Shown piece by piece: positions 9,573 through 56,450 of a stretch of 64,000 nucleotides of DNA (positions are counted from its first letter, which is position 1; each line of letters opens with the position of its first letter). The notes beneath the pieces were generated by a model, which saw nothing but the letters and a program-made list of their open reading frames with translations, was not told the origin of the DNA and ran no database searches. The DNA comes from Escherichia phage AV111, in the sequence record OR352941.1. One strand, written 5' to 3'. The translations under genes were made by a program, and so were the position numbers.

Positions 9573-10673
9573 TTACGCTGTGAAGATTTTATCCCACATC
9601 GCAACAACTGCATCTCGATTATACTTCTTCCATACTGCTTCAGCACGTTTAACTCGAGCTTCGTATGTGTCAGTGAATTCTAATACAGCTTTTGTGTAAA
9701 GCGCAACTACTTCTTTCTTAGGAGTAGAGGAATCAATTTCTACACGCACAGTATCTGGGTCGTATTCGAATGTCGCATGAGGATAATCCTTAAAAACTAA
9801 CTGGATTACAGGGACACCTTTAGAAATGGCTTCAATAGAACTATTCTCTACCGTACCTGTGTCAGGACACGTATTAATAAGTGCTTTAGCTGTTTTAAGA
9901 CGTTCCATGATTTCACTGTGTGGAGCATCAATAATAACAGGATATTTAGCTGGTGGTGCCCATTTGCTTGGACAATAACCAATACCATTTTCGCCTAGTG
10001 CTTTAATTGCTTCAAGAGCAACATCAGTGCGACGCATCTTAGTGTCATAACGTTGAGCACTAATAATCAAATCAGTTGCCGGGAGAACTTCTGGCTTTTC
10101 AGACAAACAAATAACCGGGTAGTCATCAGGTTCAAATAATGGATTTTCGCGCCAGTAGTCATAATCAATTTTGTCAGTCAGACCTGAAGTCATATAACAA
10201 TATTTGCGTTCAAATTCACGGAAGGCTTTAGTAGGAGCATAGCTCTTCCCGCCGTTCTTGTGAATCTGGATAGTCTGATCCCAAATTTGAACAATACCAC
10301 GAGACACCGGTTCAAACGGCGTAGCCATAAAATTCTTATGAACTTTAGAGAGTCCAGCATCTTTAATTGCCTGAACGGTTAGTTTAGTCGGTTCCATAGT
10401 AACAACAAAATCGTATTCATGGATGCCGGCTAGTTCAACAATCTTACGAGCCATAGTATAACTCATACCTAGACTGAATTTAGTCAGATGACCAACAGGA
10501 TGATGATTAACCTTCCAATCACCAAACGTGTCATTATCAAAGCCGATATAATCAATATCAGCACCGATGGACACAAGATATTTCAACACATTTAAATGTA
10601 CTGCTTCAAGACCACCTTGTACACGGTCAGGATTAAATGGGACTGCACGAGATGGGATAAACATAACTTTCAT
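9573..10673 (-). CDS. GT-B fold glycosyltransferase-like protein; candidate DNA (hydroxymethylcytosine) glycosyl/arabinosyl-transferase
   Basis: 366 aa; C-terminal motif TGTVENSSIEAISKGVPVI resembles the GT4/GT-B donor-binding motif; lies next to rIIA where the proposed RB69 arabinosyltransferase maps (recollection). Confidence 0.55.
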   Translation of the reverse strand: MKVMFIPSRAVPFNPDRVQGGLEAVHLNVLKYLVSIGADIDYIGFDNDTFGDWKVNHHPVGHLTKFSLGMSYTMARKIVELAGIHEYDFVVTMEPTKLTVQAIKDAGLSKVHKNFMATPFEPVSRGIVQIWDQTIQIHKNGGKSYAPTKAFREFERKYCYMTSGLTDKIDYDYWRENPLFEPDDYPVICLSEKPEVLPATDLIISAQRYDTKMRRTDVALEAIKALGENGIGYCPSKWAPPAKYPVIIDAPHSEIMERLKTAKALINTCPDTGTVENSSIEAISKGVPVIQLVFKDYPHATFEYDPDTVRVEIDSSTPKKEVVALYTKAVLEFTDTYEARVKRAEAVWKKYNRDAVVAMWDKIFTA

Positions 10674-23144: not shown

Positions 23145-23666
23145 TTAGTAACCATTATCCTGACGTTCAAAGTTGTGTTGGTTTTTCAAGTAGTAAAGTT
23201 TAAAGATTTCTTCTGCTGTAAGACCAAGACCCTGGAACATATTCAGAACGAAATGAAGAATATCAATCATCTCAAATTTAATTTCAAGCTGGTCTTCAGG
23301 AGACAGTTCATCGATACGACGATTTCGATATTCAGCATGTTGTGCTTTCCATGGCTTCCATACAGAGCTAGCGGCTTTTTCACCATTGCTCATACCGCCA
23401 AGTGAAGTCAGCAGTTCACGGAATTCGTCATCAATATAATCTTTCTGATTACGCAGCCAATCAACAACATCGCCTGCAGTGGCCAATTCATCAGGATGTT
23501 TGTTATGTTCAGGCTTGTCATTTGCCAGACGAACCTGTAAAGATTTCTGCATATCAAGCATTACCTGCAGTGGGTCTTTATCTTCGTGAATCAGAGCATT
23601 AAAATAAGCTTCTTCTGCTTTATCAACGCCTTCGATCAGTTGACTACATTCGTTGAAATGTGGCAT
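23145..23666 (-). CDS. 56: dCTP pyrophosphatase gp56 (MazG-like)
   Basis: internal ATG at 23666 with AAGGAA RBS; MPHFNECSQLIEG...WKPWKA...LEIKFEMIDILHFVLNMF matches T4 gp56 as recalled; about 173 aa. Confidence 0.85.
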   Translation of the reverse strand: MPHFNECSQLIEGVDKAEEAYFNALIHEDKDPLQVMLDMQKSLQVRLANDKPEHNKHPDELATAGDVVDWLRNQKDYIDDEFRELLTSLGGMSNGEKAASSVWKPWKAQHAEYRNRRIDELSPEDQLEIKFEMIDILHFVLNMFQGLGLTAEEIFKLYYLKNQHNFERQDNGY

Positions 23667-24317
23667 GTTATTTTCCTTTCTTATGAAGTTTTCTATCATA
23701 TGTCTATAGCAGATATTAGGATAACCTGCCTTGACAGCTATTTTATTAAATTTTGTGCGCTTAGGTCTATTATTATAAACCCATAATTCATAAAGCGCAT
23801 CATAACTATTCCATATTTCTCCTCGCCTAGGATTTGGTAAACCATATCGAGGCGAATTTTTACCGCTAAATCTTCCTTTTCGGGCTTTACTCATATTAGC
23901 CTTGGCTTCATCGGATATAATTTTACCTTTATGAGCTAGACGCATTTTAGCTTTAGTTTCTTCTGGAGTCTTTTTACCTTTAATCCATGACGGCTTGCCA
24001 TATCTAGGATTATTTTCACCCGAGAAAAGAACAGAGTTTTGGATTTTAAGGGTTTCTATTAATCTACTTGTTAATTTAACACCTTTATTATATCGCATTA
24101 AATTTACAGCATAATGCAATCCTCTCACATCTGGATATATTTTAGTTAATAATCTATGAGCTATAAAATGCTCACGCGCAGTTAACTCAACAAGATTGTT
24201 TTTGCCATCTGCTCCTCCCATACATCTAGGAATTATATGATGGCGTTCTTTATATCCGCAAAGCCGCCGGCATTTAGCTTTTGTAATTAAAGCAGAGTAA
24301 ATTTTTTGGTAATTCAC
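23667..24317 (-). CDS. HNH homing endonuclease, in frame with gene 56 (no stop before 56)
   Basis: N-terminus MNYQKIY...HHIIPRCMGG..NLVELTAREH is paralogous to HNH 10716..11513; initiates at GTG 24317; the adjacent ATG at 24319 is out of frame. Confidence 0.6.
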
Positions 24318-30785: not shown

Positions 30786-31127
30786 TTAAAAGAATTTAAA
30801 TTTTTTCTTGGTTCGTTCATTAAAAGCTTGTTGTACTTGCATTGTAACACATTTTTCAACATGTGGTGCAAGTTCTGCTTTTCTGTCCTGGTCAAGAACT
30901 GCAAAGTCCATTACGATTTTACCACCAACCCAGTCTAGTTTTGTAATATAGACTATATGATGGGAACCGTCTTCAAGTGTAATCAGAATCTCTTGAATGA
31001 CATTTTCCATTGCTGAACGGATAATTTTAAGAGATTCATTAAACACTCGTTCTTTGCGAATGTCCTCCCCTTCCGAAGAAGGGGATTCATCAACGATTTC
31101 TAGATTTAAATCATCGAGATTATTCAT
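30786..31127 (-). CDS. 40: gp40-like protein
   Basis: ATG at 31127 overlaps uvsX stop (ATGAATAA); about 113 aa; synteny. Confidence 0.6.
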   Translation of the reverse strand: MNNLDDLNLEIVDESPSSEGEDIRKERVFNESLKIIRSAMENVIQEILITLEDGSHHIVYITKLDWVGGKIVMDFAVLDQDRKAELAPHVEKCVTMQVQQAFNERTKKKFKFF

Positions 31128-32292
31128 CGAAATCTTCCATTTCGTCAAGGTCGTTTTCAATATCTGCTGCAGACGGAGCATCAGAAGTTTTAACCGGAAC
31201 TTTAGTTGTTGCTTTGCAATTAATAAGGTCATTAACAGCGTCATCAACTTCTTTAATAGAAGAGATAGCACCTAGTTTATATTTAGTTTCAATTGCATCT
31301 CGGAAAGGCTTATGTTTAAACAACGGCCCCCAGAATTCTACACAATCAGTAGCTTTAGCACGCCATGATTTCTCTTCACGAATCATTTCGCCTGTTTCTT
31401 CGTCAAGGAATTCGCGAGCATACCAACCGGCTTTAGGCTTAACCACAAAACCGATTTCAGTTGCCATTTCTAGCAAGCCGCTGAATGGGTCGATACCACC
31501 ATCAAAATTAACCGTGATCGGGAAAGTAGATTTCTCTTTAACTGTACGAGATTTTTCTGCTTTCAACGTGAAGTCATAACCGGTCAATTCTGTACCTTCT
31601 TTAACCTGACGTTTAGAGATAAAAAATACCGTGTTGGCAGAATAAAGAATACCTGTACCACCACCCATAATCTCTTTAGGATATAGTCCGCCGATTTCCA
31701 TTGCTGTATGGTTGATTGCAACACATGGAATATCTTTAATAGTCAGATAAGGAGTCACAATGCGGAACAGAGATTTAAGTGCCTTAGCACGAGACATATC
31801 ACCTACAACTTTCTCGTTCAACGCATCTTCGGTTTCTTTCTTAGATGCAGTATTACCGATTGAATCGATAAAGATAATAACTTTATCACCGCGTTCAATC
31901 GCGTCAAGCTGATTAGTCATATCAACTTTAAGTTGTTCGACAGATTGAATCGGAGTATGAACTACACGGTCTAAATCAACACCCATTGAACGAAAATAAG
32001 ATTCTGAAGCACCAAATTCTGAATCATAGAACAAACAAATTGCATCTTTATATTTCTTCATATATGCTGCAACCATGGTCAGTCCAAACAACGTTTTAAA
32101 GTGTTTAGAAGGAGCAGCAAAAATAGTCAAGCCTGATTGCAATCCTGCATTCAGAGCACCACCTAGTGCAATATTCAACATCGGAATACGAGTAGGGACT
32201 TCATCACGATTATTAAACAGCTTAGACTTAGTCAAGTCTGCAGTCATTTTAGAAGTAGAAGCTTTAATCAGACGAGATTTTAAATCAGACAT
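31120..32292 (-). CDS. uvsX: UvsX recombinase (RecA-like)
   Basis: 390 aa; matches T4 UvsX length and N-terminus. Confidence 0.95.
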   Translation of the reverse strand: MSDLKSRLIKASTSKMTADLTKSKLFNNRDEVPTRIPMLNIALGGALNAGLQSGLTIFAAPSKHFKTLFGLTMVAAYMKKYKDAICLFYDSEFGASESYFRSMGVDLDRVVHTPIQSVEQLKVDMTNQLDAIERGDKVIIFIDSIGNTASKKETEDALNEKVVGDMSRAKALKSLFRIVTPYLTIKDIPCVAINHTAMEIGGLYPKEIMGGGTGILYSANTVFFISKRQVKEGTELTGYDFTLKAEKSRTVKEKSTFPITVNFDGGIDPFSGLLEMATEIGFVVKPKAGWYAREFLDEETGEMIREEKSWRAKATDCVEFWGPLFKHKPFRDAIETKYKLGAISSIKEVDDAVNDLINCKATTKVPVKTSDAPSAADIENDLDEMEDFDE

Positions 32293-32390: not shown

Positions 32391-32939
32391 TTAACGAGCC
32401 CATTTAATGATTTCTGTAATCAAATTATTACGTTCGCTTGCATTAAATCCTATAACTTTGTTAGAACCATCATGATTAAGTAATTGATACGTTTGGATTT
32501 TGTTATGAATTGCAAACTCTTCAAAATGTGAAATGACTGTATTAAAACCGAATGAAGACAAAGTAATAAGGTCGTCTTCAAAACTTTCAGACATTTCGTT
32601 ACGTGTTAAAATAATTGTGAACACATCATGGTTTTGGCAAAGACGAACATAATCCTGTTCATAAACGTCAAGAACCGAGTCCGCATCTTGTCGAATACGT
32701 CCATAAACCCAGTTACTAATATATCCACGGTCTAACAGATAAATCTTAGTAGGGTCTAAATAATTCAACATCGTTTCGAAACAGCCAACTTCATTTCGAG
32801 ACTTAACATCGAAACGTCCATCAACTGTTCGTTTAGGGAAATCAATCTTTACATATCTTTCACTAATTTCCATTATGTCATTAATGAAAGTTGTTTTACC
32901 AGCATTATCTGGGCCATCTACTAAAATAATTTTAGCCAT
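32391..32939 (-). CDS. P-loop kinase-like protein (182 aa)
   Basis: Walker A DGPDNAGKTT at the N-terminus; sits where T4 has beta-gt. Confidence 0.55.
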   Translation of the reverse strand: MAKIILVDGPDNAGKTTFINDIMEISERYVKIDFPKRTVDGRFDVKSRNEVGCFETMLNYLDPTKIYLLDRGYISNWVYGRIRQDADSVLDVYEQDYVRLCQNHDVFTIILTRNEMSESFEDDLITLSSFGFNTVISHFEEFAIHNKIQTYQLLNHDGSNKVIGFNASERNNLITEIIKWAR

Positions 32940-32940
32940 T

Positions 32941-33840
32941 TTATTCCTCGATTACGACATCTTCATATTTAGGTATATTATACGGCGAAGAAATTAAAGC
33001 GTTAAAGTAGATGAACTCACCAAGACCTGGATGGAATACTTCTTCAGGATTTTCGAAATATTGAATCTTCGGACGTCCTTTAAGAATTTGATAGTACTCA
33101 GTTTTAGTTGGATTAAAAATTCGAATCAGCGCTTCTTCAGGATACTTATTTCTGTCGAAACTATTATTTGGATCAGTTATATAAAGCGGTTGACCTAATT
33201 GAATTGCGCATTCAACCACTTGTTCAAAACGATAGCATGGGTCACTAATTCGAAATGGATGAAAAATACCATCTAGATGAATAGGAGCCAAATCACCTAC
33301 AAGACGCTGCATGACGGAAGGACGTATAACTTTCTGCGTTACGATAATCTTATTACCATCTGCACCTGCGTTAACCAGCACTTCTTTTTGACGTTCATTC
33401 AACACAGTAGTTTGAAGTGAACGATTAACAGACAACATGTCGGTTTTTAAGAATTCATCAATATAAAAACGTGGTTTATTAGGGTCTGCAGTGATATTGA
33501 AATTGAATTCTACATCAAAAGCGCCGTCATATCCAGTGATATCTGTGATTAGAAAATCGCAATCATAATAAGCAATTAATGAATCAACTACAAATTCATT
33601 TTCAGACCAGAAATATTTACGAGTGTTATACGCGTTATCTTTATACCATAATGGAACAAACTTAAATTCTGGAAAAAGACGTTCGCATTCTTTAATATCA
33701 GATGCATTACGTGGATATGTAATCACATCACCCGGATTAGCACGGTGCAAATGAAGTTGGAAGTTGCCATCCTTAAGGATAGCATACTGTCCAGTTTCAT
33801 AAGACCGCATACTCAAGATAGGTACGCGGAAAATAGCCAT
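32941..33840 (-). CDS. hypothetical protein (299 aa)
   Basis: ORF in track; part of the cassette between uvsX and gene 43. Confidence 0.5.
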   Translation of the reverse strand: MAIFRVPILSMRSYETGQYAILKDGNFQLHLHRANPGDVITYPRNASDIKECERLFPEFKFVPLWYKDNAYNTRKYFWSENEFVVDSLIAYYDCDFLITDITGYDGAFDVEFNFNITADPNKPRFYIDEFLKTDMLSVNRSLQTTVLNERQKEVLVNAGADGNKIIVTQKVIRPSVMQRLVGDLAPIHLDGIFHPFRISDPCYRFEQVVECAIQLGQPLYITDPNNSFDRNKYPEEALIRIFNPTKTEYYQILKGRPKIQYFENPEEVFHPGLGEFIYFNALISSPYNIPKYEDVVIEE

Positions 33841-34556
33841 TAGTCAAGGAATCCTTTAACATAATCAAAATCACGTTCAAACACATGGGCACTTACCATG
33901 GTATGAGTATAATCACCAACTTCTACACCACATTCGTTAGCGATATAATGAAGTAATTTTCCTTGGAGATAAAAATCCAACTGCATAACAACAGCACAGT
34001 TCTGAGAACGCATATGACAGTGGGTATAAAGCTTACCATCACGAATATAATAAGTCACTGAGTCAGTACATGGATATTCAAGCGTTTCGTCTGAATCAAG
34101 CAAAGCCTGATCAGAACTTTCTAGAATTTGGAACACAACTCTTCGAGAGTTAGGCTTCTCTTTAAGTTCTTTTAGAAGAGCTGGTAATTGAGCCGCAATG
34201 CGAGGACCATAGAAAGTGTTGAAGTTCGCCGGCAAAACATCTGATTTTGGTTTAGAAATAAATTTAGCGACATTAGGATATGCCTTAAACGCTTCTTCTG
34301 CGTTGGTACCACCAGAAATCATAAACTTCCAGAAGTCTTCGGCATATTCATAAGAGATGCGGTTAATACGTGGGTCGGTCATTTTGAATGATGACGGAGT
34401 GTCAACAACTACTGTCATAGACCCAATTTCATTACAACGTCCAATACGAGAATCAGTTACGAATTCCGGGTTTTCTAAAATTTCACGATTGACTGCTTTA
34501 AATGCGGTTTGAAAATCTGCGGCTTTGATATATTTCATTGTGTTATGTTTTCCCAT
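33840..34556 (-). CDS. thymidylate-synthase-family pyrimidine hydroxymethylase, divergent gp42-like
   Basis: motifs NSRR, EYPCT (catalytic Cys), YYIRDGK, HMRSQN align with T4 gp42 DSRR, FMCT, YLIRDKK, MRSND but overall identity is low. Confidence 0.65.
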   Translation of the reverse strand: MGKHNTMKYIKAADFQTAFKAVNREILENPEFVTDSRIGRCNEIGSMTVVVDTPSSFKMTDPRINRISYEYAEDFWKFMISGGTNAEEAFKAYPNVAKFISKPKSDVLPANFNTFYGPRIAAQLPALLKELKEKPNSRRVVFQILESSDQALLDSDETLEYPCTDSVTYYIRDGKLYTHCHMRSQNCAVVMQLDFYLQGKLLHYIANECGVEVGDYTHTMVSAHVFERDFDYVKGFLD

Positions 34557-34597
34557 GTTTACCTCAATACAATTATTATATACTCAATTCGTAAAGC

Positions 34598-34837
34598 TTA
34601 TTTGAATTTCTTGGCAGTGTTGATATAACGTAAAGCTTCAGCATCGATACTTCCAAGAACACTATGAAGAAATGCATCAGCGTAGTATTCCAATTGAACA
34701 GATTCTTTAATCACTTTAGCCGCTTTAGTTTCAAACAGGCCCATCAGGGCCTTTTTAAGAATTTGTTCATTAGTGTTCAGTTTCATAGTCAAAATCTCTT
34801 CATTAAGTTGGTGGTTAAAAGTTTTTCTAGAAATCAT
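34598..34837 (-). CDS. hypothetical protein (79 aa)
   Basis: ORF in track. Confidence 0.4.
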   Translation of the reverse strand: MISRKTFNHQLNEEILTMKLNTNEQILKKALMGLFETKAAKVIKESVQLEYYADAFLHSVLGSIDAEALRYINTAKKFK

Positions 34838-35994
34838 TCCGGGTACCTCAAAGCGTCATCAGAGTTAGTTATATCAATAATAGATATAGAGTTTTCTGCT
34901 AACCCGTTTTTAGATAATTGACGTTTATAATATCTTTCACAATATGTACACGTCGTCCCGCAGATTTCATTAGCACAATCGAAATCTGGATGTCTGAACC
35001 ACCTTTTTTCTAAAAAGCCATCTAACAAAGAGGTTTCAATATTTACTGTATGTGAAAACTCAGTTTCGTTTTCAAGAGTGAAAATAGTCTCTAAAGGCTT
35101 CCACAGTTCTAACAAATTACCTTCAAACTTTTCAGAAGCGTATGCTTCAAGAACTTTCAAAATGTAGTCTGTGCTACCTGTACGTCCTGAAACTTTGAAT
35201 TGAGTGATACCAATATCATTATAAAGTTTCAAATCTTGAGGACGAACAAAACGAGTTCTCAACCAGTTAAATGGGTCTGTATCACGAGCTTTAATACAGT
35301 GCTGCATAGGATATCCGTTTAAGGATTTAGCATCATCAGCTGTAACATCAGTACTATGGAAAATATAGCAAGAGTCACGATAGCTACAATGTGTTGTATA
35401 CCCTTTACCAGCATTAGAACAGAACTCATTTACAAGAACTTCAAATATTATATTGTTCTTATTGCAAAACTCTGCTGCACGCTTCAGGAAAGAAACTGAA
35501 CGGTTCTTATGAATTCCACAGCAGACCTTTTTGATATTATATTGGTCATGCAAGTATTTGATTTGAGTTACAGCATCGACATGTAGAATTGTTGAAACTT
35601 CAATCTCAATGTCTTTATTGACTTCACGAACAATTTCCATAACAACAGGGTTAGCGATAGTAATACGCCATACGCCTATTGACCAAAGATACTGAACATA
35701 ATCCTGAATAGCTTTCTTCTTCCACTCAACTAGTTCTCTTTTTGAACCAGGATTTATCGTGTTGAGTGTATAGTTAAAGCAAATACCTAATTCGTTACAA
35801 CGTTTAACGTAATCTTCTAACATCTTTTTGTCAACGTCAGGAAGCCTAAAATCAGGTCTGGCTGCTACAAAAGCCATTTCTCTTGTAGAGCCGTATACTT
35901 CGTTTATCAAGCTATTAGGATAGGTTTTATTGAGCTCTACGATTTTATCAAGAAGAGCTAAATCAAAATTCGTTCCGATTTTAAAAGTATTCAT
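34834..35994 (-). CDS. Cys-cluster protein (386 aa), possible Fe-S enzyme
   Basis: C-terminal CX4CX3CX2C cluster and an EFCSNAGKGYTTHCS segment reminiscent of the peptidase U32 signature. Confidence 0.5.
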   Translation of the reverse strand: MNTFKIGTNFDLALLDKIVELNKTYPNSLINEVYGSTREMAFVAARPDFRLPDVDKKMLEDYVKRCNELGICFNYTLNTINPGSKRELVEWKKKAIQDYVQYLWSIGVWRITIANPVVMEIVREVNKDIEIEVSTILHVDAVTQIKYLHDQYNIKKVCCGIHKNRSVSFLKRAAEFCNKNNIIFEVLVNEFCSNAGKGYTTHCSYRDSCYIFHSTDVTADDAKSLNGYPMQHCIKARDTDPFNWLRTRFVRPQDLKLYNDIGITQFKVSGRTGSTDYILKVLEAYASEKFEGNLLELWKPLETIFTLENETEFSHTVNIETSLLDGFLEKRWFRHPDFDCANEICGTTCTYCERYYKRQLSKNGLAENSISIIDITNSDDALRYPE

Positions 35995-36056
35995 TTTTTT
36001 TGCATCTCGCGTTAATTGATGCGATGGTTTTTTTTTTGCAGGTCTTACTTAAATTA

Positions 36057-36458
36057 TTATAGATTCGGTTTATATGATTTAAATGTTTCGAATTCGCCTT
36101 TATTCATAAGAGCTTTGAATTCATCAGGACGCATAGCTTTGTCGTCGATAATCCAATCATATACTGGTTTATGTGTTAGCAAATTATGGTACTTCAAACC
36201 AATGTTTTCCAAGTTCTGAATAAGACTTGGGAGAATGTCAATTGCTATACGACCAGGACCTACTGACTTCATACCACGAGCAGTGTAAAGCGTTATGGTA
36301 TGCCCTGCATCATACAGGGCATTAATGGCAGACACCATTTCGACGTCTGGTTTGAAGTTCACGTAATCACGATTGTTATTCCATTCCGTGATGCAATCAT
36401 CGACATCAAAACAAAGATTAAGCATGTTTTCTACACAGTGCATTAGATTCGTTCCCAT
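36057..36458 (-). CDS. HAD-superfamily phosphatase (133 aa)
   Basis: motif I FDVDDCIT (DxDxT), motif II TARG, motif III WIIDDK. Confidence 0.65.
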   Translation of the reverse strand: MGTNLMHCVENMLNLCFDVDDCITEWNNNRDYVNFKPDVEMVSAINALYDAGHTITLYTARGMKSVGPGRIAIDILPSLIQNLENIGLKYHNLLTHKPVYDWIIDDKAMRPDEFKALMNKGEFETFKSYKPNL

Positions 36459-38128
36459 TGATGAGTGATATCGCCACCGATTGGACGATAAGAAACACCA
36501 GTTTCTTTATCAGTTAGTACCCATTTACCAGGATTTTTTGTAATCAGAGTAGCCGTTACAGGTTCTGCTACGTCATAACTAATAGAGCCGTCTTGAAGTA
36601 CACGGCCCATGTTACGTAATTGCTTAGTCAGAAGTTCCATACCTTTATAATATGCTGCTACCGCTTTAAGTGGATTATTCTTGAAATAACCACCTAATGC
36701 AATCCAGATAATTGCTACAGCCAAATGATGATACTCGTTAAACGAACTCATCTTTCCATATTTGTAAACTAATGGATTGATGTTAATAGTCACATTACAA
36801 GTTGTTTCATCAATAGTAAACTGTCCCCAGGCCGGATTAGCATTGAATTCATCATAACCTGAAACAGCATAAAGCACTTTAGCTTCATCATACAATTTTG
36901 GCCCGTAAATCTTGGTTTCGCCAAAATATCCACGAGGGTCGATAAACTTGACTTCGCCGTTATCAGTAATCATAGTATTACTGAAGTTCGGGTCACCATG
37001 AATAACAGAGTACTGTCCCTGAGAACGGTTATGATAACGAATAAGGTGTTCTAAAGCTTGTTTCAGCATTGGCTTCAGACGTCCAATCTTAGTGTAGTTC
37101 ACATGTGTGATTTTACCAAATGAATCAATCAATGGTTGAATACTTTCACAACGATCAATAACTTTCGTATAGAATTCTTTAGTGAAATCACGACGAACAG
37201 TTTCAGGACTTACAAAATAAGTGTCTGTGCTGAATTTCAGTGCATCTAAAATTGCATCAACAATTTGTGGACGAGCAAGACTTGATTTGGATTTAATATA
37301 TTCAAATGCCGGCTTACCTTTAATGCGTTCCATTTCAAAGTTATTTTCATTAACAGAAACTAACTGAGGAACTGAATCTGATTTCACTTTAAGATACCAC
37401 GAAATCTCATCTTTCTGAAGAGCTCGACCCTGTTCGGTTAATGCGAATTTAGTTACAGTTTCTTCACCAATTTCAACTGCATTAAAACTACGATTAAGTT
37501 CACGAACTTCATGAGCTTTTTCAAGTTTAGGCATATCACCTAAATCAATTAGATTCATAAGCTCTGATTTATTGAATGCGCTGCCGTAAAGGAATTCTAC
37601 GAAATCACGTCCTTTGCAGTATTCATGAATTTCCTCATCGGTAGAACCCATATAGAATTCCCAGTCTTTGAACTGATAAATTCCTACAACATTACCACCT
37701 GTTGAACCTACGTTAGTGATATTTTCACCGTCGAAATTATATCGACATTCATCACCCTTAACATAGATTGCGTTAACATTCCAAGACCATGAACCAAAAT
37801 CAGGAATAATATCACACCAGTTAACAATTACGTTATGGCCGTCTAAATCTTTGTGTAATTTAGCAAGAGCATAAGCAGAACCATACGCTTCATCAACTGT
37901 ACGAATAGTCACATTGAACCCTTCTTGCTCACAATAAGCTCGAACAGTTTCAGCAAATTTTGAATGAACTACTACAATAATTTCATCTGCGCCAAGGTCA
38001 GAATAAATTGTATACAAATTGCTCAGAATAGTGTCTTGTTTATAGTTAACAAGCACCTTAGGAATATGATGCGTTATTGGATACAAACGAGTTGCCAGTC
38101 CAGCACCAAGAATAACAGCTTTTTTCAT
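36443..38128 (-). CDS. bifunctional sugar-1-phosphate nucleotidyltransferase / kinase (561 aa)
   Basis: N-terminus MKKAVILGAGLATRLYPIT (GxGTRLxPxT); C-terminal HGDPNFSN (HxDxxxxN) kinase motif. Confidence 0.7.
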   Translation of the reverse strand: MKKAVILGAGLATRLYPITHHIPKVLVNYKQDTILSNLYTIYSDLGADEIIVVVHSKFAETVRAYCEQEGFNVTIRTVDEAYGSAYALAKLHKDLDGHNVIVNWCDIIPDFGSWSWNVNAIYVKGDECRYNFDGENITNVGSTGGNVVGIYQFKDWEFYMGSTDEEIHEYCKGRDFVEFLYGSAFNKSELMNLIDLGDMPKLEKAHEVRELNRSFNAVEIGEETVTKFALTEQGRALQKDEISWYLKVKSDSVPQLVSVNENNFEMERIKGKPAFEYIKSKSSLARPQIVDAILDALKFSTDTYFVSPETVRRDFTKEFYTKVIDRCESIQPLIDSFGKITHVNYTKIGRLKPMLKQALEHLIRYHNRSQGQYSVIHGDPNFSNTMITDNGEVKFIDPRGYFGETKIYGPKLYDEAKVLYAVSGYDEFNANPAWGQFTIDETTCNVTININPLVYKYGKMSSFNEYHHLAVAIIWIALGGYFKNNPLKAVAAYYKGMELLTKQLRNMGRVLQDGSISYDVAEPVTATLITKNPGKWVLTDKETGVSYRPIGGDITHQWERI

Positions 38129-38156
38129 GTTGAAGTCCTCATTGGTAAGTAGGAGT

Positions 38157-38181
38157 ATTGTACACTATTCTAGTTAAAGCA
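38157..38181 (-). promoter_or_regulatory. MotA-type middle promoter for the nucleotidyltransferase/kinase gene (TGCTTTA, 12 nt, -10 TACAAT)
   Basis: read from sequence. Confidence 0.5.
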
Positions 38182-38313
38182 TTCATACTTTGCTTGTAGT
38201 CCAATCATAATCCATCCAATTACAAGTGTTGGAATCATTACCGGAGCCGTTAAGCTCCAGTAGATAGTCATGACAAGCATCAATAGTAAAAGTCCTATTG
38301 TTATTGCTTTCAT
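38170..38313 (-). CDS. small hydrophobic protein (47 aa)
   Basis: ATG overlaps SIS gene stop (ATGA); below ORF-track cutoff. Confidence 0.35.
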   Translation of the reverse strand: MKAITIGLLLLMLVMTIYWSLTAPVMIPTLVIGWIMIGLQAKYECFN

Positions 38314-38945
38314 TGTTCGCCTCGTAACATGGCACCTAGTGCACCGCCTGGATGGAACTTAAGGAAATCATTAGAGGTAAATCCACGTTCAGACGAAAGG
38401 TTGATAGCAAACGTATCGATAAGCGCTAACAACAATGTAGTGGACATTGTCGGAGCTAAAGAGTTCTCGTCAACTTCTACCGCGATACCGGTACAGAACG
38501 TATAATCAAAAAGAGCTTCGTATTCTTGTGGAATGTCAGGGTTACAATGTAACAGAATCTGTTTAACCTGAGGACGAATCATACGAAGATGTTTAGCAAC
38601 ACCTATCATTTCTTCAGTCTTACCAGAACGACTGATGTGAACTAATACATCATTAGGTGCAATAAATCCTGCGTCACCATGAGAATAATGCCCAGTGTTC
38701 AAGTACATACTCGGGATACCGAGTGAAGCAAATGTCTCAGAAGCTTTAGTTGCGATATTAGCATTCTTACCAACACCTGTAATAATTACCCGGCTTTCAT
38801 AATTGCTAAGTCCGGGGCGTCGAAGAGTTTCTAGAATAGCATTATAACGAGCAGGGTTTTGACTAATTACTTTGGCCATAGCGGCCAAAGAAGAAGCTTG
38901 TTTTATGATTGCGTCAATAGCGATAGTAATAGGAGTAGTTTTCAT
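38310..38945 (-). CDS. SIS-domain sugar-phosphate isomerase, KdsD/GutQ-like (arabinose-5-phosphate isomerase-like)
   Basis: ITGVGKN, HISRSGKTEE, APTMSTT, HPGGALG motifs align with the KdsD SIS domain as recalled. Confidence 0.75.
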   Translation of the reverse strand: MKTTPITIAIDAIIKQASSLAAMAKVISQNPARYNAILETLRRPGLSNYESRVIITGVGKNANIATKASETFASLGIPSMYLNTGHYSHGDAGFIAPNDVLVHISRSGKTEEMIGVAKHLRMIRPQVKQILLHCNPDIPQEYEALFDYTFCTGIAVEVDENSLAPTMSTTLLLALIDTFAINLSSERGFTSNDFLKFHPGGALGAMLRGEQ

Positions 38946-38985: not shown

Positions 38986-41697
38986 TCAAAAATCGAACAT
39001 ATCGAACAGAGATGCTTTCTTCTCATAATCGAGTTTCGCTGCTGATGTGAATCCTTCAAGTGGTTTAATAAATGTCTTCTCAAGGAGAACAGTGTAGTCC
39101 ATCCAATGAAGTACATCGTCTTTAATTAAATCTGTGATTTCAGTACCAGAAGGCCATGCGATACATTTATCACCGAATGGGTTTCCTTCACGTAAAGGCA
39201 GAACATATACTTTTTCACCTTCTACAACTTGCGGCGCATCAATATTACCTTTGATAGCTCGGTTATATGTCAGAATTCCACGAATATGGAACGGGCATTT
39301 GGGGCCAGGGAATCCACCGACATCATATTTAGCAATGTTATTCGCAGAAGATACCGACGCGATGCTAATATAATTCAATTGACGGAATTCTTTTTCAAAC
39401 TCTTTAAAATATTCTTGTAATGATTCTTCACCTTCTTGAAGCATACGACGAATACATTCTTTAAGAGCTTTCTGTACTGCTTTAGGGGTCGAAGATTTCT
39501 GAGTCTCTAGACCCATGATTTTGAGTTTAGGCTCAGCGTAACGAGTGCCTTCCATATCCCACACGTTTAATGCATAACGTTTCTTACCAGTCCAGAATCC
39601 ACCAATACCTTTAGAACCGAGCGGAGGGCCAGCAATAGCTTCTCGGTCCATGAACATCAAATGTTGCTTATTATTCATGTATTCACACATTTCACGGAAA
39701 CCTCTATCAATAGCTGGTTCCATACGTTCACGTGCAAACTTATCTAAGAAGTCTACCCAATGGTTGGTATCACGGAATTTAGATTCACCAACCTTATCAA
39801 TAATTTTATCTGCAGATACGTAAATGGAGTCTGTATCACCATATAGAACGAAAGCTTCGCCTTCTGTACCACAAACTTCATTCAGATATTCATTAACTTT
39901 ACGTTCAATCCACTGTAAAGCCATTTGCCCAAATGTTGTGATTGCAGTTGCATTACGCAAATCGTAATAACGGAACCAAACGTTTCCAAGTGCACCATAA
40001 AGTGAGTTGATAAGCAATTTACGGTTAATCTGTGCAGTCATACCTGCAACTTCAGTACGTTGAGCTCTAAACAACATTTCATTAAGAGATTTAGCAGACA
40101 ACTTTTTAATCTTTTCTTTAATCTCATCACTGAAGTCGAAACGATAATCAACATCTAATGGTTCGTCAACAGAAAGATTAGGATTATGCAATGCCTCTTT
40201 AATTATTTCGCCATTACGTTGAGCTGCAAGCATGTAACCTTTATGTTCTTTACGTTGATTAAAGACCTTAGTGATTTCAGTTGGAACTACACCATCACGG
40301 TCTTTATAATACATCATGCCGTTAGGAGAGCAACTGTACACATCTGAAGGACGTTCAGCGATTGCGTTAATATAATCATGCAGTGGAGCTACTTTAAACG
40401 TTCCTGCTATTGTTTCAGGGCTAATATTCACTTGGCGAATAATACTTGGATACAGAGATGTAAGGTCGAAACTCATTACATATTTGTATCGATTTGGAAT
40501 AGGTTCCTTAACAAAAGCGCCAGGATAAGGTTGAACCGGGTGAGAACGACCTTGTGGAATCACCTTGTTCTGCTCTTTAAGGCTATTAAAAATAATAGCA
40601 TCCCATGTTTTAATTGGACTGAACACAGATTGAATCTGAATTTTAGCATAATAACCCATGTCCAAGCTCAAGTTAATGAACTGGCGTTTAGCATCAATTT
40701 GCAATACACGATATACGTCGATAATGTTATAAGAAATATATCGTTGGTGATTGCTTTCACGAAGCTTAGAAATAGGGCCGTCATATTTCAGTTTACCAAC
40801 GTTCAATTCAAATTCTGAAATGTAATCCAGAGAATACGACGGTTGGTTCGTGAAAGAGAACTTTTTGTAAAGGTCAATGTAATCAAGAACAGAGATACCG
40901 AACAATGTAATGATTTCACGAGAACCATACATGTTTTCGATAACTTTAACACGAGTTTTACGATGTGGTGATAAACGTTTCGCAGTAGATTCGCCAAAAA
41001 TATTCTTGATTCGGTTATACACATATGGAATATCAAATGACTCAACGTTCCATCCAGTCAAAATGACAGGAGTTTTCTGTTGCCAGAAGTTGAGATATTC
41101 CATCAACAATTCTTTTTCGTTATCGAACGGCATATAAATGATTTTATCGATAATTTCGGATGGAACTTCATCACCGCCTTGTTCTTGAAGCTTAGCAGCG
41201 ATTTCAATAGACCATTCTTCTACATTACCATATGGAGAATTCAATAGATCAAATACGTAGAACCTGTCGTCAATTGAGTCATAATGGGTGATAGCATCAA
41301 TCGGATGTTTTGCTTGTGACGGCTCAGGGAACCCATCCGGAGATGTTACTTCGATGTCGAAGTTAGCCACACGAATTTTTGTATGGTCGTATTTGATTTC
41401 ATAGTTATAAGTGTCAGACAAATACGCCAATTTGAAATCGTCCATGCCAAGTGCTTCAAGTCCGATATCTTCCATGCGTTTAATCCATTGAGACGCATCG
41501 CGCATATTAGCGAACAACTTACGAGTACACGGCTTACCGTAGATATCGAAATATTTCGTAGCCTGACTTTCTGGACAATGAGCAAACAGTGATGGTTTAT
41601 ATTCTACTTCACGAGTACGTTCACGGCCATTAGAATCGATGTAACGTTCAAAAATTGAATCACCAATCTGTTCAACCGTTAAGTAAAATTCTTTCAT
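38986..41697 (-). CDS. 43: DNA polymerase gp43 (family B), RB69-type
   Basis: 903 aa; N-terminus MKEFYLTVEQIGDSIFERYID and C-terminus LFDMFDF match the RB69 polymerase as recalled. Confidence 0.97.
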   Translation of the reverse strand: MKEFYLTVEQIGDSIFERYIDSNGRERTREVEYKPSLFAHCPESQATKYFDIYGKPCTRKLFANMRDASQWIKRMEDIGLEALGMDDFKLAYLSDTYNYEIKYDHTKIRVANFDIEVTSPDGFPEPSQAKHPIDAITHYDSIDDRFYVFDLLNSPYGNVEEWSIEIAAKLQEQGGDEVPSEIIDKIIYMPFDNEKELLMEYLNFWQQKTPVILTGWNVESFDIPYVYNRIKNIFGESTAKRLSPHRKTRVKVIENMYGSREIITLFGISVLDYIDLYKKFSFTNQPSYSLDYISEFELNVGKLKYDGPISKLRESNHQRYISYNIIDVYRVLQIDAKRQFINLSLDMGYYAKIQIQSVFSPIKTWDAIIFNSLKEQNKVIPQGRSHPVQPYPGAFVKEPIPNRYKYVMSFDLTSLYPSIIRQVNISPETIAGTFKVAPLHDYINAIAERPSDVYSCSPNGMMYYKDRDGVVPTEITKVFNQRKEHKGYMLAAQRNGEIIKEALHNPNLSVDEPLDVDYRFDFSDEIKEKIKKLSAKSLNEMLFRAQRTEVAGMTAQINRKLLINSLYGALGNVWFRYYDLRNATAITTFGQMALQWIERKVNEYLNEVCGTEGEAFVLYGDTDSIYVSADKIIDKVGESKFRDTNHWVDFLDKFARERMEPAIDRGFREMCEYMNNKQHLMFMDREAIAGPPLGSKGIGGFWTGKKRYALNVWDMEGTRYAEPKLKIMGLETQKSSTPKAVQKALKECIRRMLQEGEESLQEYFKEFEKEFRQLNYISIASVSSANNIAKYDVGGFPGPKCPFHIRGILTYNRAIKGNIDAPQVVEGEKVYVLPLREGNPFGDKCIAWPSGTEITDLIKDDVLHWMDYTVLLEKTFIKPLEGFTSAAKLDYEKKASLFDMFDF

Positions 41698-54165: not shown

Positions 54166-54636
54166 TTAATCATGTTTCCACACCCCATCGGTATTTGACC
54201 AAAGTCGCTGATTATCTGATCCTCGCCACAGCTTTTTAGTCGGAAGATTTTTCTCATACTTCCCATCAATAATAACATCAACATATTTAAGCATTTCTAG
54301 TTGTTTAATATCTTCAAACTTATATCCTGTCCACAACCAAATGCTTTTATTGGGATAAAGATTTTTTACTGTTTGAACAATGCAATGAATAACATCTCGA
54401 TTATCAGGATAGAGAGGGTCTCCTCCGGTTATAGTCAATCCTTCTATATAATCGTTATTCAAACATTCAATTAATTGTTCTAGTGTTTCACCAGTGAATG
54501 GAATACCATTTCTAGCATTCCATGTTGATTTATTATAGCACCCTTCACATTTATGCAAACAACCTGTAACGAAAAGAACGACCCTGCATCCAGGGCCATT
54601 CACAAAATCGCAAGGATAAAATCTATCATAATTCAT
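54166..54636 (-). CDS. nrdG: anaerobic ribonucleotide reductase activating protein NrdG (radical SAM)
   Basis: 156 aa; CX3CX2C motif CLHKCEGC near the N-terminus; synteny with nrdD. Confidence 0.9.
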   Translation of the reverse strand: MNYDRFYPCDFVNGPGCRVVLFVTGCLHKCEGCYNKSTWNARNGIPFTGETLEQLIECLNNDYIEGLTITGGDPLYPDNRDVIHCIVQTVKNLYPNKSIWLWTGYKFEDIKQLEMLKYVDVIIDGKYEKNLPTKKLWRGSDNQRLWSNTDGVWKHD

Positions 54637-56450
54637 TGGTGTTTAACCCTATGCATGATTTCTTTATTTTTGCCGAGATTAAATCCGCGTTCGTTCGGGT
54701 TTCCCAAATAACCGCATGTTCTTCTTATGGTGTTCATCTTTTTAGGATCAGTTTCTCCGCAAACTGAACAAACAAATCCGTTTTCAGTAGGAGTCATTTC
54801 ATGGGTACTTCCACATGTAAAACATTTATCTACTGGCATATTAACACCAAAATAATCTAAATGTTGTGCAGCATAATCCCACACGGCCTCAAGTCCTTTT
54901 AAGTTATTTTTCATATCAGGAAGTTCAACATAAGAAATGTGACCACCTGTCGCAATGAAATGATATGGCGCTTCACGAGAAATCTTTTCAAACGGAGTAA
55001 TATTTTCTTCTACTGAAACGTGGAAACTGTTAGTGTACCAGCCTTTATCGGTAACATCTTTTACACTTCCATATTTTTCTGTATCGAGTTTACAGAAGCG
55101 ATAACAAAGGTTTTCAGCAGGAGTAGAATACAAACTAAAAGCAAAACCAGTTCTTTCAGTCCACTGCTTAAGATGAGCATTCATTTTAGTTAAAATTTCT
55201 TGCCCAATATCACGGCCGACAAGAATATTCAATTCGTGAATACCAATGTATCCTAAAGACACTGAACTTCTACCGTTTTTAAATAACTCAATTATGTCGT
55301 CATCAGGTTTAAGACGAACCCCGAATGCACCTTCTTGGTAAAGAATAGGAGCTACAGTTGCTTTAACTCCTTTTAAGGAACTAATTCTACACATCAAAGC
55401 TTCAAAACACAGGTCCATTCGTTCGTTAAATAGCTCAACAAATTTCTGTTCATTGAACTGTGTTCCAATATAAGAATCTAACGCAATACGAGGAAGATTC
55501 AGTGTTACAACACCAAGATTATTACGTCCATCAAGAATTTCATTACCAGTCGAATCTTTCCATACGCTCAAGAAACTACGGCAACCCATTGGAGAAACTG
55601 GAACTGAAGAACCGGTAATAGCTTTATTATTCTTAACCGAAATAATGTCAGGATACATTCTTTTGCTTGCACATTCTAACGCAAGTTGTTTAATATCATA
55701 GTTTGGATCATCTTTATAAAGATTAACACCTTCTTCAACAAACATAACAAGTTTAGGAAAAATAGGAGTTATTCCATCACGACCAAGACCTTTAATGCGG
55801 TTTTTAAGAATTGCCTTCTGAATCATTCGTTCAGTCCAATCGGTTCCCGTACCAAATGTAATTGTTACAAAAGGAGTTTGTCCGTTTGAACTAAAGAGAG
55901 TGTTTACTTCATATTCATAAGCTTGGAATGCATCGTATACGTCTTTTTCTGTTTTAGATTGAGCATAATTCAACGCGTCAGCGATTTGCCATTTTTCTGC
56001 ATCTTCAACATGTTTAGCGTATGTACGTTTAACATAAGGAGAAAGAACTTTATCGACATTCGCAAAAGTCGTTCCGCCGTATTGGTGTGAAGCAACTTGT
56101 GCAGTAATTTGTGCCATAATTGCAGTAGCAACACCAATCGATTTAGGCGTTTCAATTTGAGCATTGCCTAATTTAAATCCGTTCTCAAGCATCCCTTTTA
56201 AATCTACTAAACAACAATTAGTAAAAGGCAATGATATACTGTAATCTAAATCATGAAAATGAATTAACCCGGCATTATGAGCATTTACAATATGGCTTGG
56301 AAGAATACTGCAAGCGATATGTTTAGAAACAATACCGGCCATTAAATCTCTTTTTGTTGGAAAGACACGAGAATCTTTGTTGGCGTTTTCGGTATTTAAT
56401 TCTTTATCTTTATTTGAAATAAAATTTAAAACATCTTTCTCTAAAGACAT
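54633..56450 (-). CDS. nrdD: anaerobic ribonucleoside-triphosphate reductase NrdD
   Basis: 605 aa; C-terminal glycyl-radical motif RTCGYLG; uninterrupted ORF. Confidence 0.95.
   Translation of the reverse strand: MSLEKDVLNFISNKDKELNTENANKDSRVFPTKRDLMAGIVSKHIACSILPSHIVNAHNAGLIHFHDLDYSISLPFTNCCLVDLKGMLENGFKLGNAQIETPKSIGVATAIMAQITAQVASHQYGGTTFANVDKVLSPYVKRTYAKHVEDAEKWQIADALNYAQSKTEKDVYDAFQAYEYEVNTLFSSNGQTPFVTITFGTGTDWTERMIQKAILKNRIKGLGRDGITPIFPKLVMFVEEGVNLYKDDPNYDIKQLALECASKRMYPDIISVKNNKAITGSSVPVSPMGCRSFLSVWKDSTGNEILDGRNNLGVVTLNLPRIALDSYIGTQFNEQKFVELFNERMDLCFEALMCRISSLKGVKATVAPILYQEGAFGVRLKPDDDIIELFKNGRSSVSLGYIGIHELNILVGRDIGQEILTKMNAHLKQWTERTGFAFSLYSTPAENLCYRFCKLDTEKYGSVKDVTDKGWYTNSFHVSVEENITPFEKISREAPYHFIATGGHISYVELPDMKNNLKGLEAVWDYAAQHLDYFGVNMPVDKCFTCGSTHEMTPTENGFVCSVCGETDPKKMNTIRRTCGYLGNPNERGFNLGKNKEIMHRVKHQ

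Follow-up and report, generated by a model that had tools for sequence, protein, structure and literature searches.

The 64,000-nucleotide stretch of the Escherichia phage AV111 genome analyzed here (accession OR352941.1; referred to below as the window) belongs to a Mosigvirus, one of the RB69-like coliphages, and its interval 32391–38945, between uvsX and gene 43, is very probably the arabinosyl-5-hydroxycytosine DNA cluster of these RB69-type phages. The cluster as such is already known: it was outlined in 2018, when the eight-gene module of RB69 was singled out (Thomas et al. 2018), and its chemistry was settled in 2025–2026, the pathway of the RB69 module having been worked out by Lee et al. 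(NAR 2026). One member of the cluster, a protein of the U32 family, is the main subject of what follows; we lean towards seeing in it an O2-independent, prephenate-dependent C5 hydroxylase of deoxycytidylate, or of cytosine in DNA, that would act beside the thymidylate-synthase-type hydroxylase encoded in the same cluster. He et al. (Nat Chem Biol 2026) and Mahler et al. (2025) reportedly also worked on the arabinosyl-5-hydroxycytosine pathway.

Organization of the uvsX–gene 43 interval

All genes of the interval are on the minus strand, as listed below, and they are flanked by uvsX (31120–32292) and the DNA polymerase gene, gene 43 (38986–41697); base composition is uniform over 32391–38945. 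With a minimum length of 40 amino acids (aa), the gap contains nine minus-strand open reading frames (ORFs) of 182, 299, 238, 79, 386, 133, 561, 47 and 211 aa. A sequence-only reading that preceded this analysis counted eight, which is correct if the 47-aa ORF is ignored, and the three ORFs for which it gave limits, those of 211, 133 and 561 aa, were recovered at exactly those coordinates and on that strand. The principal genes are:

32391–32939, minus strand: thymidylate-kinase-like P-loop kinase, 182 aa, equivalent of RB69 gp45
32941–33840, minus strand: predicted base-proximal arabinosyltransferase 1, 299 aa, equivalent of RB69 gp46:47
33840–34556, minus strand: 5-hydroxy-dCMP synthase (dCMP, deoxycytidine monophosphate), a thymidylate-synthase homolog, 238 aa, equivalent of RB69 gp48
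34834–35994, minus strand: U32-family iron-sulfur (Fe-S) protein, 386 aa, equivalent of RB69 gp50
36057–36458, minus strand: HAD phosphatase, predicted arabinose-1,5-bisphosphate 5-phosphatase, 133 aa, equivalent of AfhF and RB69 gp51
36443–38128, minus strand: bifunctional arabinose-1-phosphate uridylyltransferase (N-terminal half) and arabinose-5-phosphate 1-kinase (C-terminal half), 561 aa, equivalent of AfhE and RB69 gp52:53
38310–38945, minus strand: predicted arabinose-5-phosphate isomerase consisting of a SIS domain only, 211 aa, equivalent of RB69 gp55

The DNA of the interval is 98.1–98.7% identical over its full length to that of many Mosigvirus members, and 151 phage records match at least 80% of it. 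RB69 ORF045c–055c are gene-for-gene equivalents of this stretch, except that the RB69 pairs 046/047 and 052/053 each correspond to one ORF in AV111; these single ORFs agree with the published view that sequencing errors account for the RB69 splits (Lee et al. NAR 2026; Thomas et al. 2018). In T4 the same slot is filled by b-gt, gene 42 and imm, and the comparison across the uvsX–43 interval thus bears out the sequence-only reading that the cassette stands in place of these T4 genes. In the T4 GT7 record the gene 42 slot is unannotated and has an in-frame stop. Essentiality of single genes in the arabinosylation cluster is not reported in a preprint on transposon mutagenesis of Bas46.

The modified base

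The 238-aa protein matches Thymidylat_synt with 56.9 bits. Aligned with E. coli ThyA and T4 gp42 it keeps Cys146 and has the substitutions L143E, D169N, N177D and W80A, whereas T4 gp42 retains Asp169 and the folate-site Trp80. Cys146, N177D and L143E plus D169N make up the diagnostic signature of 5-hydroxy-dCMP synthases, and every D169N enzyme tested has given 5-hydroxydeoxycytidine (5-hydroxy-dC) as its product. The AV111 protein is, moreover, nearly the same as the crystallized enzyme of PDB 9iqc (E 7.9e-161; 233/238 residues identical, or 98%; five differences from 9iqc/9ir2). RB69 gp48 has been found to bind flavin and to incorporate 18O from 18O2 (Lee et al. NAR 2026), nuclear magnetic resonance (NMR) of RB69 DNA shows the arabinose ether-linked to an oxygen directly on C5, i.e. 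to 5-hydroxycytosine, and arabinosyl-5-hydroxy-dC has been reported in the virion DNA of RB69, Bas46 and others. Because of the synthase signature, the 98% identity to 9iqc and the NMR and 18O2 data for RB69, the base in AV111 DNA is predicted to be arabinosyl-5-hydroxycytosine and not hydroxymethylcytosine.

The sequence-only reading had named 5-hydroxymethylcytosine as the target base and the product of 33840–34556 as a hydroxymethylase homolog, and on both points it has to be given up: N169 and A80 speak strongly against a dCMP hydroxymethylase of the T4 gp42 type, and the signature is that of a 5-hydroxy-dCMP synthase. The same misnaming is widespread, the synthase gene being annotated as dCMP hydroxymethylase or thymidylate synthase in many GenBank records, and correction of the databases is needed both there and for the U32 protein, which is misnamed a peptidase.

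The sugar branch

The sequence-only reading placed the 211-aa protein among SIS isomerases of KdsD/GutQ type, and the profile searches agree (Pfam SIS 38.8 bits, against a gathering threshold, GA, of 25; KpsF/GutQ E 8.9e-32; KdsD E 3.9e-30; phrog_5670, 'arabinose 5-phosphate isomerase', E 2.6e-116). It has a GVGKN motif at residue 57, and falls under the full-length family cut-offs because the SIS domain alone is present. For RB69 the function of the isomerase gp55 is a prediction made in Lee et al.

The 561-aa protein, read earlier as a fusion of an RmlA-like nucleotidyltransferase and an APH-type kinase, has this composition in the searches too. NTP_transferase matches residues 3–99 with 39.1 bits (GA 21.2), and the kinase part is supported by sub-threshold matches together with its motif: residues 308–409 are matched by kinase families below threshold only, and HGDPNFSN (HxDxxxxN) stands at residues 377–384. 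GAGLATRL is found at residues 8–15 and FIDPRG at 395; the match to PDB 1jyk has an E-value of 2.1e-5, and the HddC profile scores 22 bits against a cut-off of 300.

For the 133-aa protein the HAD family assignment holds (TIGR01689, capsule-biosynthesis phosphatase, E 1.9e-13), a Pfam search being without match, and it is the DxDxT motif claimed for it that does not: motif I reads DVDDC, with Cys for the canonical Thr, in AV111, Entb_45 and PM2, and DIDDT or DIDNT in CBH8, F48, Bp7 and DLP1. The DxD nucleophile is kept across 8 phages.

By the account given in Lee et al. of the work they cite, kinase and uridylyltransferase activities have been demonstrated for HY126 AfhE, and AfhF is a Mg-dependent phosphatase. 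The AV111 proteins are orthologous to these enzymes, and the kinase, phosphatase and uridylyl transfer steps are assigned to them for that reason. As outlined in that account, the published route leads from ribulose-5-phosphate through arabinose-5-phosphate, arabinose-1,5-bisphosphate and arabinose-1-phosphate to UDP-arabinofuranose (UDP, uridine diphosphate). The sequence-only reading had arrived at the same four sugar-nucleotide activities, with a logic like that of heptose activation, and had drawn a path from ribulose-5-phosphate by way of arabinose-5-phosphate and arabinose-1-phosphate to a nucleoside-diphosphate arabinose; it matches the published pathway, including the order isomerase, C1 kinase, 5-phosphatase and uridylyl transfer.

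Glycosyl transfer and the proposed pathway

Three genes of the cassette went unrecognized in the sequence-only reading: the glycosyltransferase, the kinase and the U32 gene. The 299-aa protein matches phrog_3891 (E 1.1e-155), and for its RB69 equivalent gp46:47 a glycosyltransferase fold of the GT-B type has been reported; for gp45, the equivalent of the 182-aa kinase, structural matches to thymidylate kinases have been reported in the same study (Lee et al. NAR 2026). The kinase itself matches phrog_761, 'thymidylate kinase' (E 3.1e-45), and otherwise gives weak P-loop matches only. Two genes outside the cassette belong to the same pathway:

9573–10673, minus strand: predicted second arabinosyltransferase, equivalent of RB69 ORF003c
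23148–23666, minus strand: dCTPase/dCDPase (gene 56 equivalent), 96% identical to the Bas47 dCTPase

The product of 9573–10673 is 98.9% identical to a Bas47 'putative hmC-arabinosyltransferase', and a role for RB69 gp3-type second arabinosyltransferases has been proposed (Thomas et al. 2018; Lee et al. NAR 2026). Neither arabinosyltransferase candidate was matched in a Pfam search. The presence of gene 56 had been noticed correctly in the sequence-only reading. A sequence resembling HNH/NUMOD3 homing endonucleases, at about 23670–24317 (minus strand; span 23145–24317), precedes the dCTPase gene in frame, with no stop between them; Bas47 has no HNH/NUMOD3 sequence at the corresponding spot before its dCTPase.

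In the pathway that we propose, the dCTPase would deplete dCTP from the pool, and the synthase would hydroxylate dCMP at C5 with flavin and O2, as shown for RB69 gp48 and, as far as it is described in the literature cited above, for the near-identical HY126 enzyme. Kinases would next convert 5-hydroxy-dCMP to the triphosphate for incorporation by the polymerase. On the sugar side, the SIS isomerase is predicted to convert ribulose-5-phosphate to arabinose-5-phosphate, after which the C-terminal half of the 561-aa protein would phosphorylate C1, the HAD phosphatase would remove the 5-phosphate, and the N-terminal half would make UDP-arabinofuranose. The 299-aa glycosyltransferase is predicted to add the first arabinose and the 9573–10673 enzyme the second.

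The U32-family protein

The 386-aa protein matches Peptidase_U32 with 42.2 bits (GA 22.4). Its AlphaFold2 (AF2) model has a mean confidence (pLDDT) of 93.6, and the best fold match is PDB 5d88 (E 4.9e-7), other matches being to generic TIM barrels only; a sequence search against the PDB gave no match. To our knowledge, 5d88 is the only solved U32 structure.

Nine cysteines are invariant in 113 U32 sequences: C158, C192, C203, C209, C233 and the four of a C-terminal CX4CX3CX2C motif (340–352). Three of them, C203, C209 and C233, align with C169, C176 and C193 of UbiU, and C203 and C209 also align with C169 and C176 of RlhA; the fourth Fe-S ligand of UbiU, C232, has no placed counterpart in AV111, where six further invariant cysteines are present. 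RlhA C169 and C176 are essential for the formation of 5-hydroxycytidine in rRNA, for which RlhA needs prephenate. More generally, RlhA, TrhP and UbiU/V are Fe-S U32 proteins required for O2-independent, prephenate-dependent hydroxylation, and for UbiU/V prephenate is the oxygen donor.

When the profile of the phage protein was compared with the four U32 paralogs of E. coli, RlhA came out best (E 1.9e-5), although all scores are weak, every target being a single sequence. The alignment with RlhA is limited to the TIM-barrel core (residues 54–284), and the DUF3656 and C-terminal parts of RlhA are absent. The phage protein has instead an insert of about 14 residues carrying an extra invariant Cys, in addition to the C-terminal CX4CX3CX2C motif, which marks a separate subfamily. 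A full-text literature search, in which He et al. and Mahler et al. were not covered, found no link between a phage U32 protein and chorismate mutase, prephenate or 5-hydroxycytosine.

Association with chorismate mutase and distribution

In Enterobacter phage Entb_45 the stop codon of the U32 gene lies within an overlapping ORF that is annotated as chorismate mutase (CM). The association is general: in 6/6 genera beyond Mosigvirus (Kanagawavirus, Mosugukvirus, Winklervirus, Marfavirus, Bragavirus and that of Shewanella phage Thanatos), a protein matching CM_2 above the Pfam GA (33–47 bits) is encoded directly after the U32 gene or one small ORF beyond it. The AroQ catalytic set (Arg, Arg, Lys, Glu, Ser, Gln) is invariant in these phage proteins, and the best PDB match of the family is the chorismate mutase 1ybz (E 1.4e-17). 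The phage CM occurs in 51 phage records, and in nearly all rows listed a thymidylate-synthase homolog or a U32 protein is annotated next to it. In Thanatos the U32 and CM genes lie at another position in the cluster, so that the pair travels as a unit.

Searches recovered the U32 protein from 221 phage records, never with less than 81% identity. Across genera its identity to the window protein is 81–87%, compared with 68–90% for UvsX, 67–84% for the hydroxylase and 43–73% for the AfhE-like protein, and no other protein of the cluster is as strongly conserved; the adjacent phage CMs are 26–66% identical to each other. This pattern points to purifying selection on the U32 protein and not to recent transfer.

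The AfhE-like gene is present in 373 records, 57 of them from Acinetobacter phages, yet no Acinetobacter phage is found among the 221 U32 records. The clusters of Acinetobacter phage DLP1 and Dhakavirus Bp7 are complete except for U32 and CM, and the U32/CM module is therefore optional. Thanatos and LC53, which carry U32, have mono-arabinosylated DNA, and three arabinoses are attached in DLP3, in whose cluster as published no U32 gene is listed. The products thus do not track the presence of U32, and a redundant route accounts for this better than an additional step of chemistry would.

Distant relatives in uncultured phages

U32 relatives of about 360 aa, 47–58% identical, are abundant in metagenomes. 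Ten contexts were sampled, and all 10 are phage-like replication and nucleotide modules, with genes such as those for DnaE polymerase, RecA, primase, a thymidylate-kinase-like protein, dCMP deaminase, dUTPase, NT5C and deoxynucleoside kinase (dNK). In 5/10 a kinase gene comes first, a gene for a ~330-aa protein second and the U32 gene third, the stop codon of the second overlapping the U32 start. The family of the ~330-aa protein is homologous to glycosyltransferase 1 of the cluster (hhalign probability 99.7%, E 4e-27, 260 columns; hmmsearch 1e-17 to 1e-29), and that of the kinase to the cluster kinase (hhalign 97.6%, E 4e-12). No ThyA-superfamily gene and no CM gene was found within 6–10 kb of the trio in the contigs searched. 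Because a glycosyltransferase of this family needs a hydroxylated base as acceptor and no ThyA-type gene is near, the U32 protein is the only candidate for the hydroxylation in these phages.

Several of the contigs have features of their own. A 61-kb Logan contig (SRR33454321; L024/L029) contains a candidate new hypermodification cluster (L029, 7777–16179), in the order glycosyltransferase, kinase, glycosyltransferase-1 homolog, U32, TAGT, dUTPase/dCTP deaminase, two ORFs and UDP-galactopyranose mutase. The TAGT DNA glycosyltransferase scores above threshold, and no thymidylate-synthase homolog was found within 10 kb of this locus. A UDP-galactopyranose mutase gene near a glycosyltransferase gene is found both here and in L028/L030. 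In an 80-kb Logan contig (SRR13394437; L022, 4545–8804), the U32 gene adjoins one for a choline-kinase-like protein of 484 aa and is followed by those for a DAHP_synth_1 protein (150 bits) and an epimerase. The DAHP_synth_1 protein could supply the shikimate/prephenate route, but might equally well be a KDO8P-type synthase using arabinose-5-phosphate. On an 86-kb ENA scaffold (ERZ28598223; L004, 8001–15428), U32 stands beside NT5C, a nicotinamide mononucleotide transporter, a deoxynucleoside kinase and a radical SAM enzyme, with a second, more distant U32 protein, a nucleoside deoxyribosyltransferase, and bacterial-looking flanks that include a dockerin-bearing GH43 protein.

Proposed role of the U32 protein and alternatives

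We favor, with some reserve, a hydroxylase role for the U32 protein, on the strength of its family, its conserved ligands, its link to chorismate mutase, its strong conservation, the fact that some phages do without it, and the occurrence of the trio where no gene for a thymidylate-synthase-type hydroxylase is close by. The protein would provide a second route to the same 5-hydroxylated cytosine, with prephenate as the oxygen donor as in RlhA, TrhP and UbiU/V, and in RB69-like phages it would back up the O2-dependent enzyme. The anaerobic ribonucleotide reductase NrdD (571 bits) and its activase NrdG (Fer4_12, 164 bits) are encoded at 54166–56450 (minus strand). With NrdD/NrdG the phage is otherwise equipped for anoxia, and the U32 route would allow DNA modification there. 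In a large group of low-GC uncultured phages, the kinase–glycosyltransferase–U32 trio would be the sole route to a glycosylated hydroxypyrimidine.

A number of points weigh against these interpretations. The assignments for the window proteins rest on orthology, and the RB69 sugar enzymes are themselves predictions. Glycosyltransferase 1 is without reconstituted activity, Lee et al. having seen none with single enzymes, and the Thanatos paper assigns UDP-xylose pyrophosphorylase activity to TH1_063, a homolog of the 299-aa protein, so that two differing biochemical roles have been published for this family. As to the U32 protein, no U32 hydroxylase has been reconstituted in vitro to date, and Lee et al. 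give its RB69 equivalent a different label, discussed below. Chorismate mutase was not found anywhere in the 64-kb window, so that a Mosigvirus would need host prephenate. A thymidylate-synthase homolog could lie elsewhere in the metagenomic phage genomes. Finally, Dhakaviruses infect E. coli yet are without U32, and the correlation of U32 with host lifestyle, which rests on few independent clades, lends weak support only.

Of the other roles that the U32 protein might have, one in the sugar branch follows from existing annotation: Lee et al. (NAR 2026) list gp50 only in a table (Table 1), as a 'sugar or heterocycle reductase', the BASEL annotation is 'putative enzyme involved in UDP-arabinose biosynthesis', and the gene lies between those of the phosphatase and the hydroxylase. 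We consider such a role unlikely, since three sugar enzymes already cover the path from ribulose-5-phosphate to UDP-arabinofuranose, the arabinose chains are as long or longer in phages that lack U32, and no U32 member is known as a reductase, the characterized ones being tied to hydroxylation. It would also leave the adjacent chorismate mutase unexplained, and the distant homologs retain kinase and glycosyltransferase partners, not arabinose enzymes.

Alternatively, the protein, together with CM in other genera, may be a prephenate-dependent hydroxylase for some other substrate, for instance tRNA or rRNA of the phage or its host, and a mere neighbor of the modification genes. The known U32 nucleic-acid hydroxylases do act on RNA, and RlhA is the best E. 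coli match, but the protein aligns with RlhA over its core only and is without the parts of RlhA named above. The relatives in all ten sampled contexts lie among genes of deoxynucleotide metabolism and replication, and in half of these the U32 start overlaps the stop of a glycosyltransferase homolog, so that this reading seems to us distinctly unlikely. An arrangement in which a gp42-type dCMP hydroxymethylase supplies 5-hydroxymethylcytosine and the glycosyltransferase attaches the pentose to it, as implied by the many GenBank records of that name and by the since superseded report of ara-hmC in RB69 from high-performance anion-exchange chromatography and matrix-assisted laser desorption/ionization (Thomas et al. 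2018), is extremely improbable given N169 and A80 in place of the Asp and Trp of T4 gp42, the products of the D169N enzymes, the near-identity to 9iqc and the 18O2 incorporation in RB69, and for RB69 it is already refuted by the published NMR results.

Should the proposed hydroxylase role of the U32 protein be true, it would explain how an obligately modified phage keeps its DNA fully modified in the anoxic gut. Among U32 hydroxylases the protein would be the first to act on a small soluble substrate, and also the first to take part in DNA modification. A new enzyme family, present in many uncultured phages, would thereby be added to those of DNA hypermodification. The finding could also offer a tractable nucleotide substrate to U32 enzymology, a field that is without an in vitro hydroxylase assay.

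Small ORFs and middle-promoter-like sites

The remaining features of the interval are:

34557–34597, minus strand: near-consensus middle-promoter-like motif aGCTTTA-N11-TATAAT, with one mismatch in the MotA box, in the 41-nt spacer before the synthase gene
34598–34837, minus strand: 79-aa helical ORF, RB69 ORF049c
38157–38181, minus strand: MotA-type middle-promoter-like site TGCTTTA-N12-TACAAT, by motif match
38170–38313, minus strand: 47-aa hydrophobic ORF overlapping the isomerase stop codon, RB69 ORF054c

The 47-aa ORF matches phrog_3610 (E 6.8e-27), and PM2 and CBH8 have ORFs of 46–47 aa in the same slot. Homologs of the 79-aa ORF were found by protein search in Mosigviruses only; it is homologous (E 3e-14) to a 57-aa ORF of PM2 that is placed between the U32 and CM genes. 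Its AF2 model (pLDDT 68) is too poor for a fold search. It was considered as a degenerate chorismate mutase and rejected: there is no CM_2 match at E-values up to 10, hhalign against the phage CM family gives a probability of 0.13%, and PM2 has the homolog in addition to CM. No CM signal was found in any frame of this region.

The window encodes MotA at 1491–2123 (MotA_activ 137 bits), and the pattern TGCTT(T/C)A followed 11–13 bp on by TAnnnT occurs in it 13 times against 1.58 expected, an eight-fold excess. The site at 38157–38181 lies upstream of a GAGGA Shine-Dalgarno sequence and the ATG, at 38128, of the 561-aa gene. As a motif it is what the sequence-only reading took it for; as a promoter for the whole cassette it cannot serve, since it is internal and the isomerase gene, which lies upstream of it, is out of its reach. 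In other genera the CM gene overlaps the start of the synthase gene, where AV111 has the 34557–34597 spacer.

Comparison with known systems

The AV111 cluster has its closest counterpart in the RB69/HY126 pathway (RB69 gp45–55 and gp3; HY126 Afh), with which it shares its genes, their order, about 98% DNA identity, the hydroxylase signature, the bifunctional kinase/uridylyltransferase and the HAD phosphatase. The differences are at the level of strains only, apart from the ORFs that are split in RB69 and single here.

Nucleotide-activated heptose is made by the GmhA isomerase, the HldE/HddA kinase, the GmhB phosphatase and the HldE/HddC nucleotidyltransferase. The AV111 sugar branch works like this pathway: a SIS isomerase comes first, a kinase then phosphorylates the sugar phosphate at its anomeric position, a HAD enzyme takes off the distal phosphate, and nucleotidyl transfer follows. 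It does not belong to that pathway, however: a pentose is activated in place of a heptose, the isomerase is of the KdsD/GutQ branch and not GmhA, and the kinase is of the APH/choline-kinase type.

With the glucosyl-hydroxymethylcytosine system of T4 (gp56, gp42 and the alpha- and beta-glucosyltransferases) the cluster shares the slot between uvsX and gene 43 and the sequence of a dCTPase, a thymidylate-synthase-family enzyme acting on dCMP, and glycosylation. AV111 differs in having a hydroxyl in place of a hydroxymethyl group, flavin and O2 in place of folate, phage-made UDP-arabinofuranose in place of host UDP-glucose, and unrelated glycosyltransferases.

The phage U32 protein resembles RlhA, TrhP, UbiU and UbiV in its Pfam U32 core, in cysteines aligned with Fe-S ligands, and in a link to prephenate through the adjacent CM of related phages. 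Like them it coexists with an O2-dependent enzyme for what would be the same product (compare TrhO with TrhP, and UbiI, H and F with UbiU and V). It differs in forming a separate subfamily, and its proposed substrate is a deoxynucleotide or DNA.

Rhizobium phage RL38J1 likewise has 5-hydroxycytosine as the attachment point for phage-activated furanose sugars. It uses a D169N thymidylate-synthase homolog, whereas the metagenomic contigs have the U32 gene and no such homolog within 6–10 kb; as in RL38J1, a UDP-galactopyranose mutase is encoded near a glycosyltransferase in L024/L029 and L028/L030.

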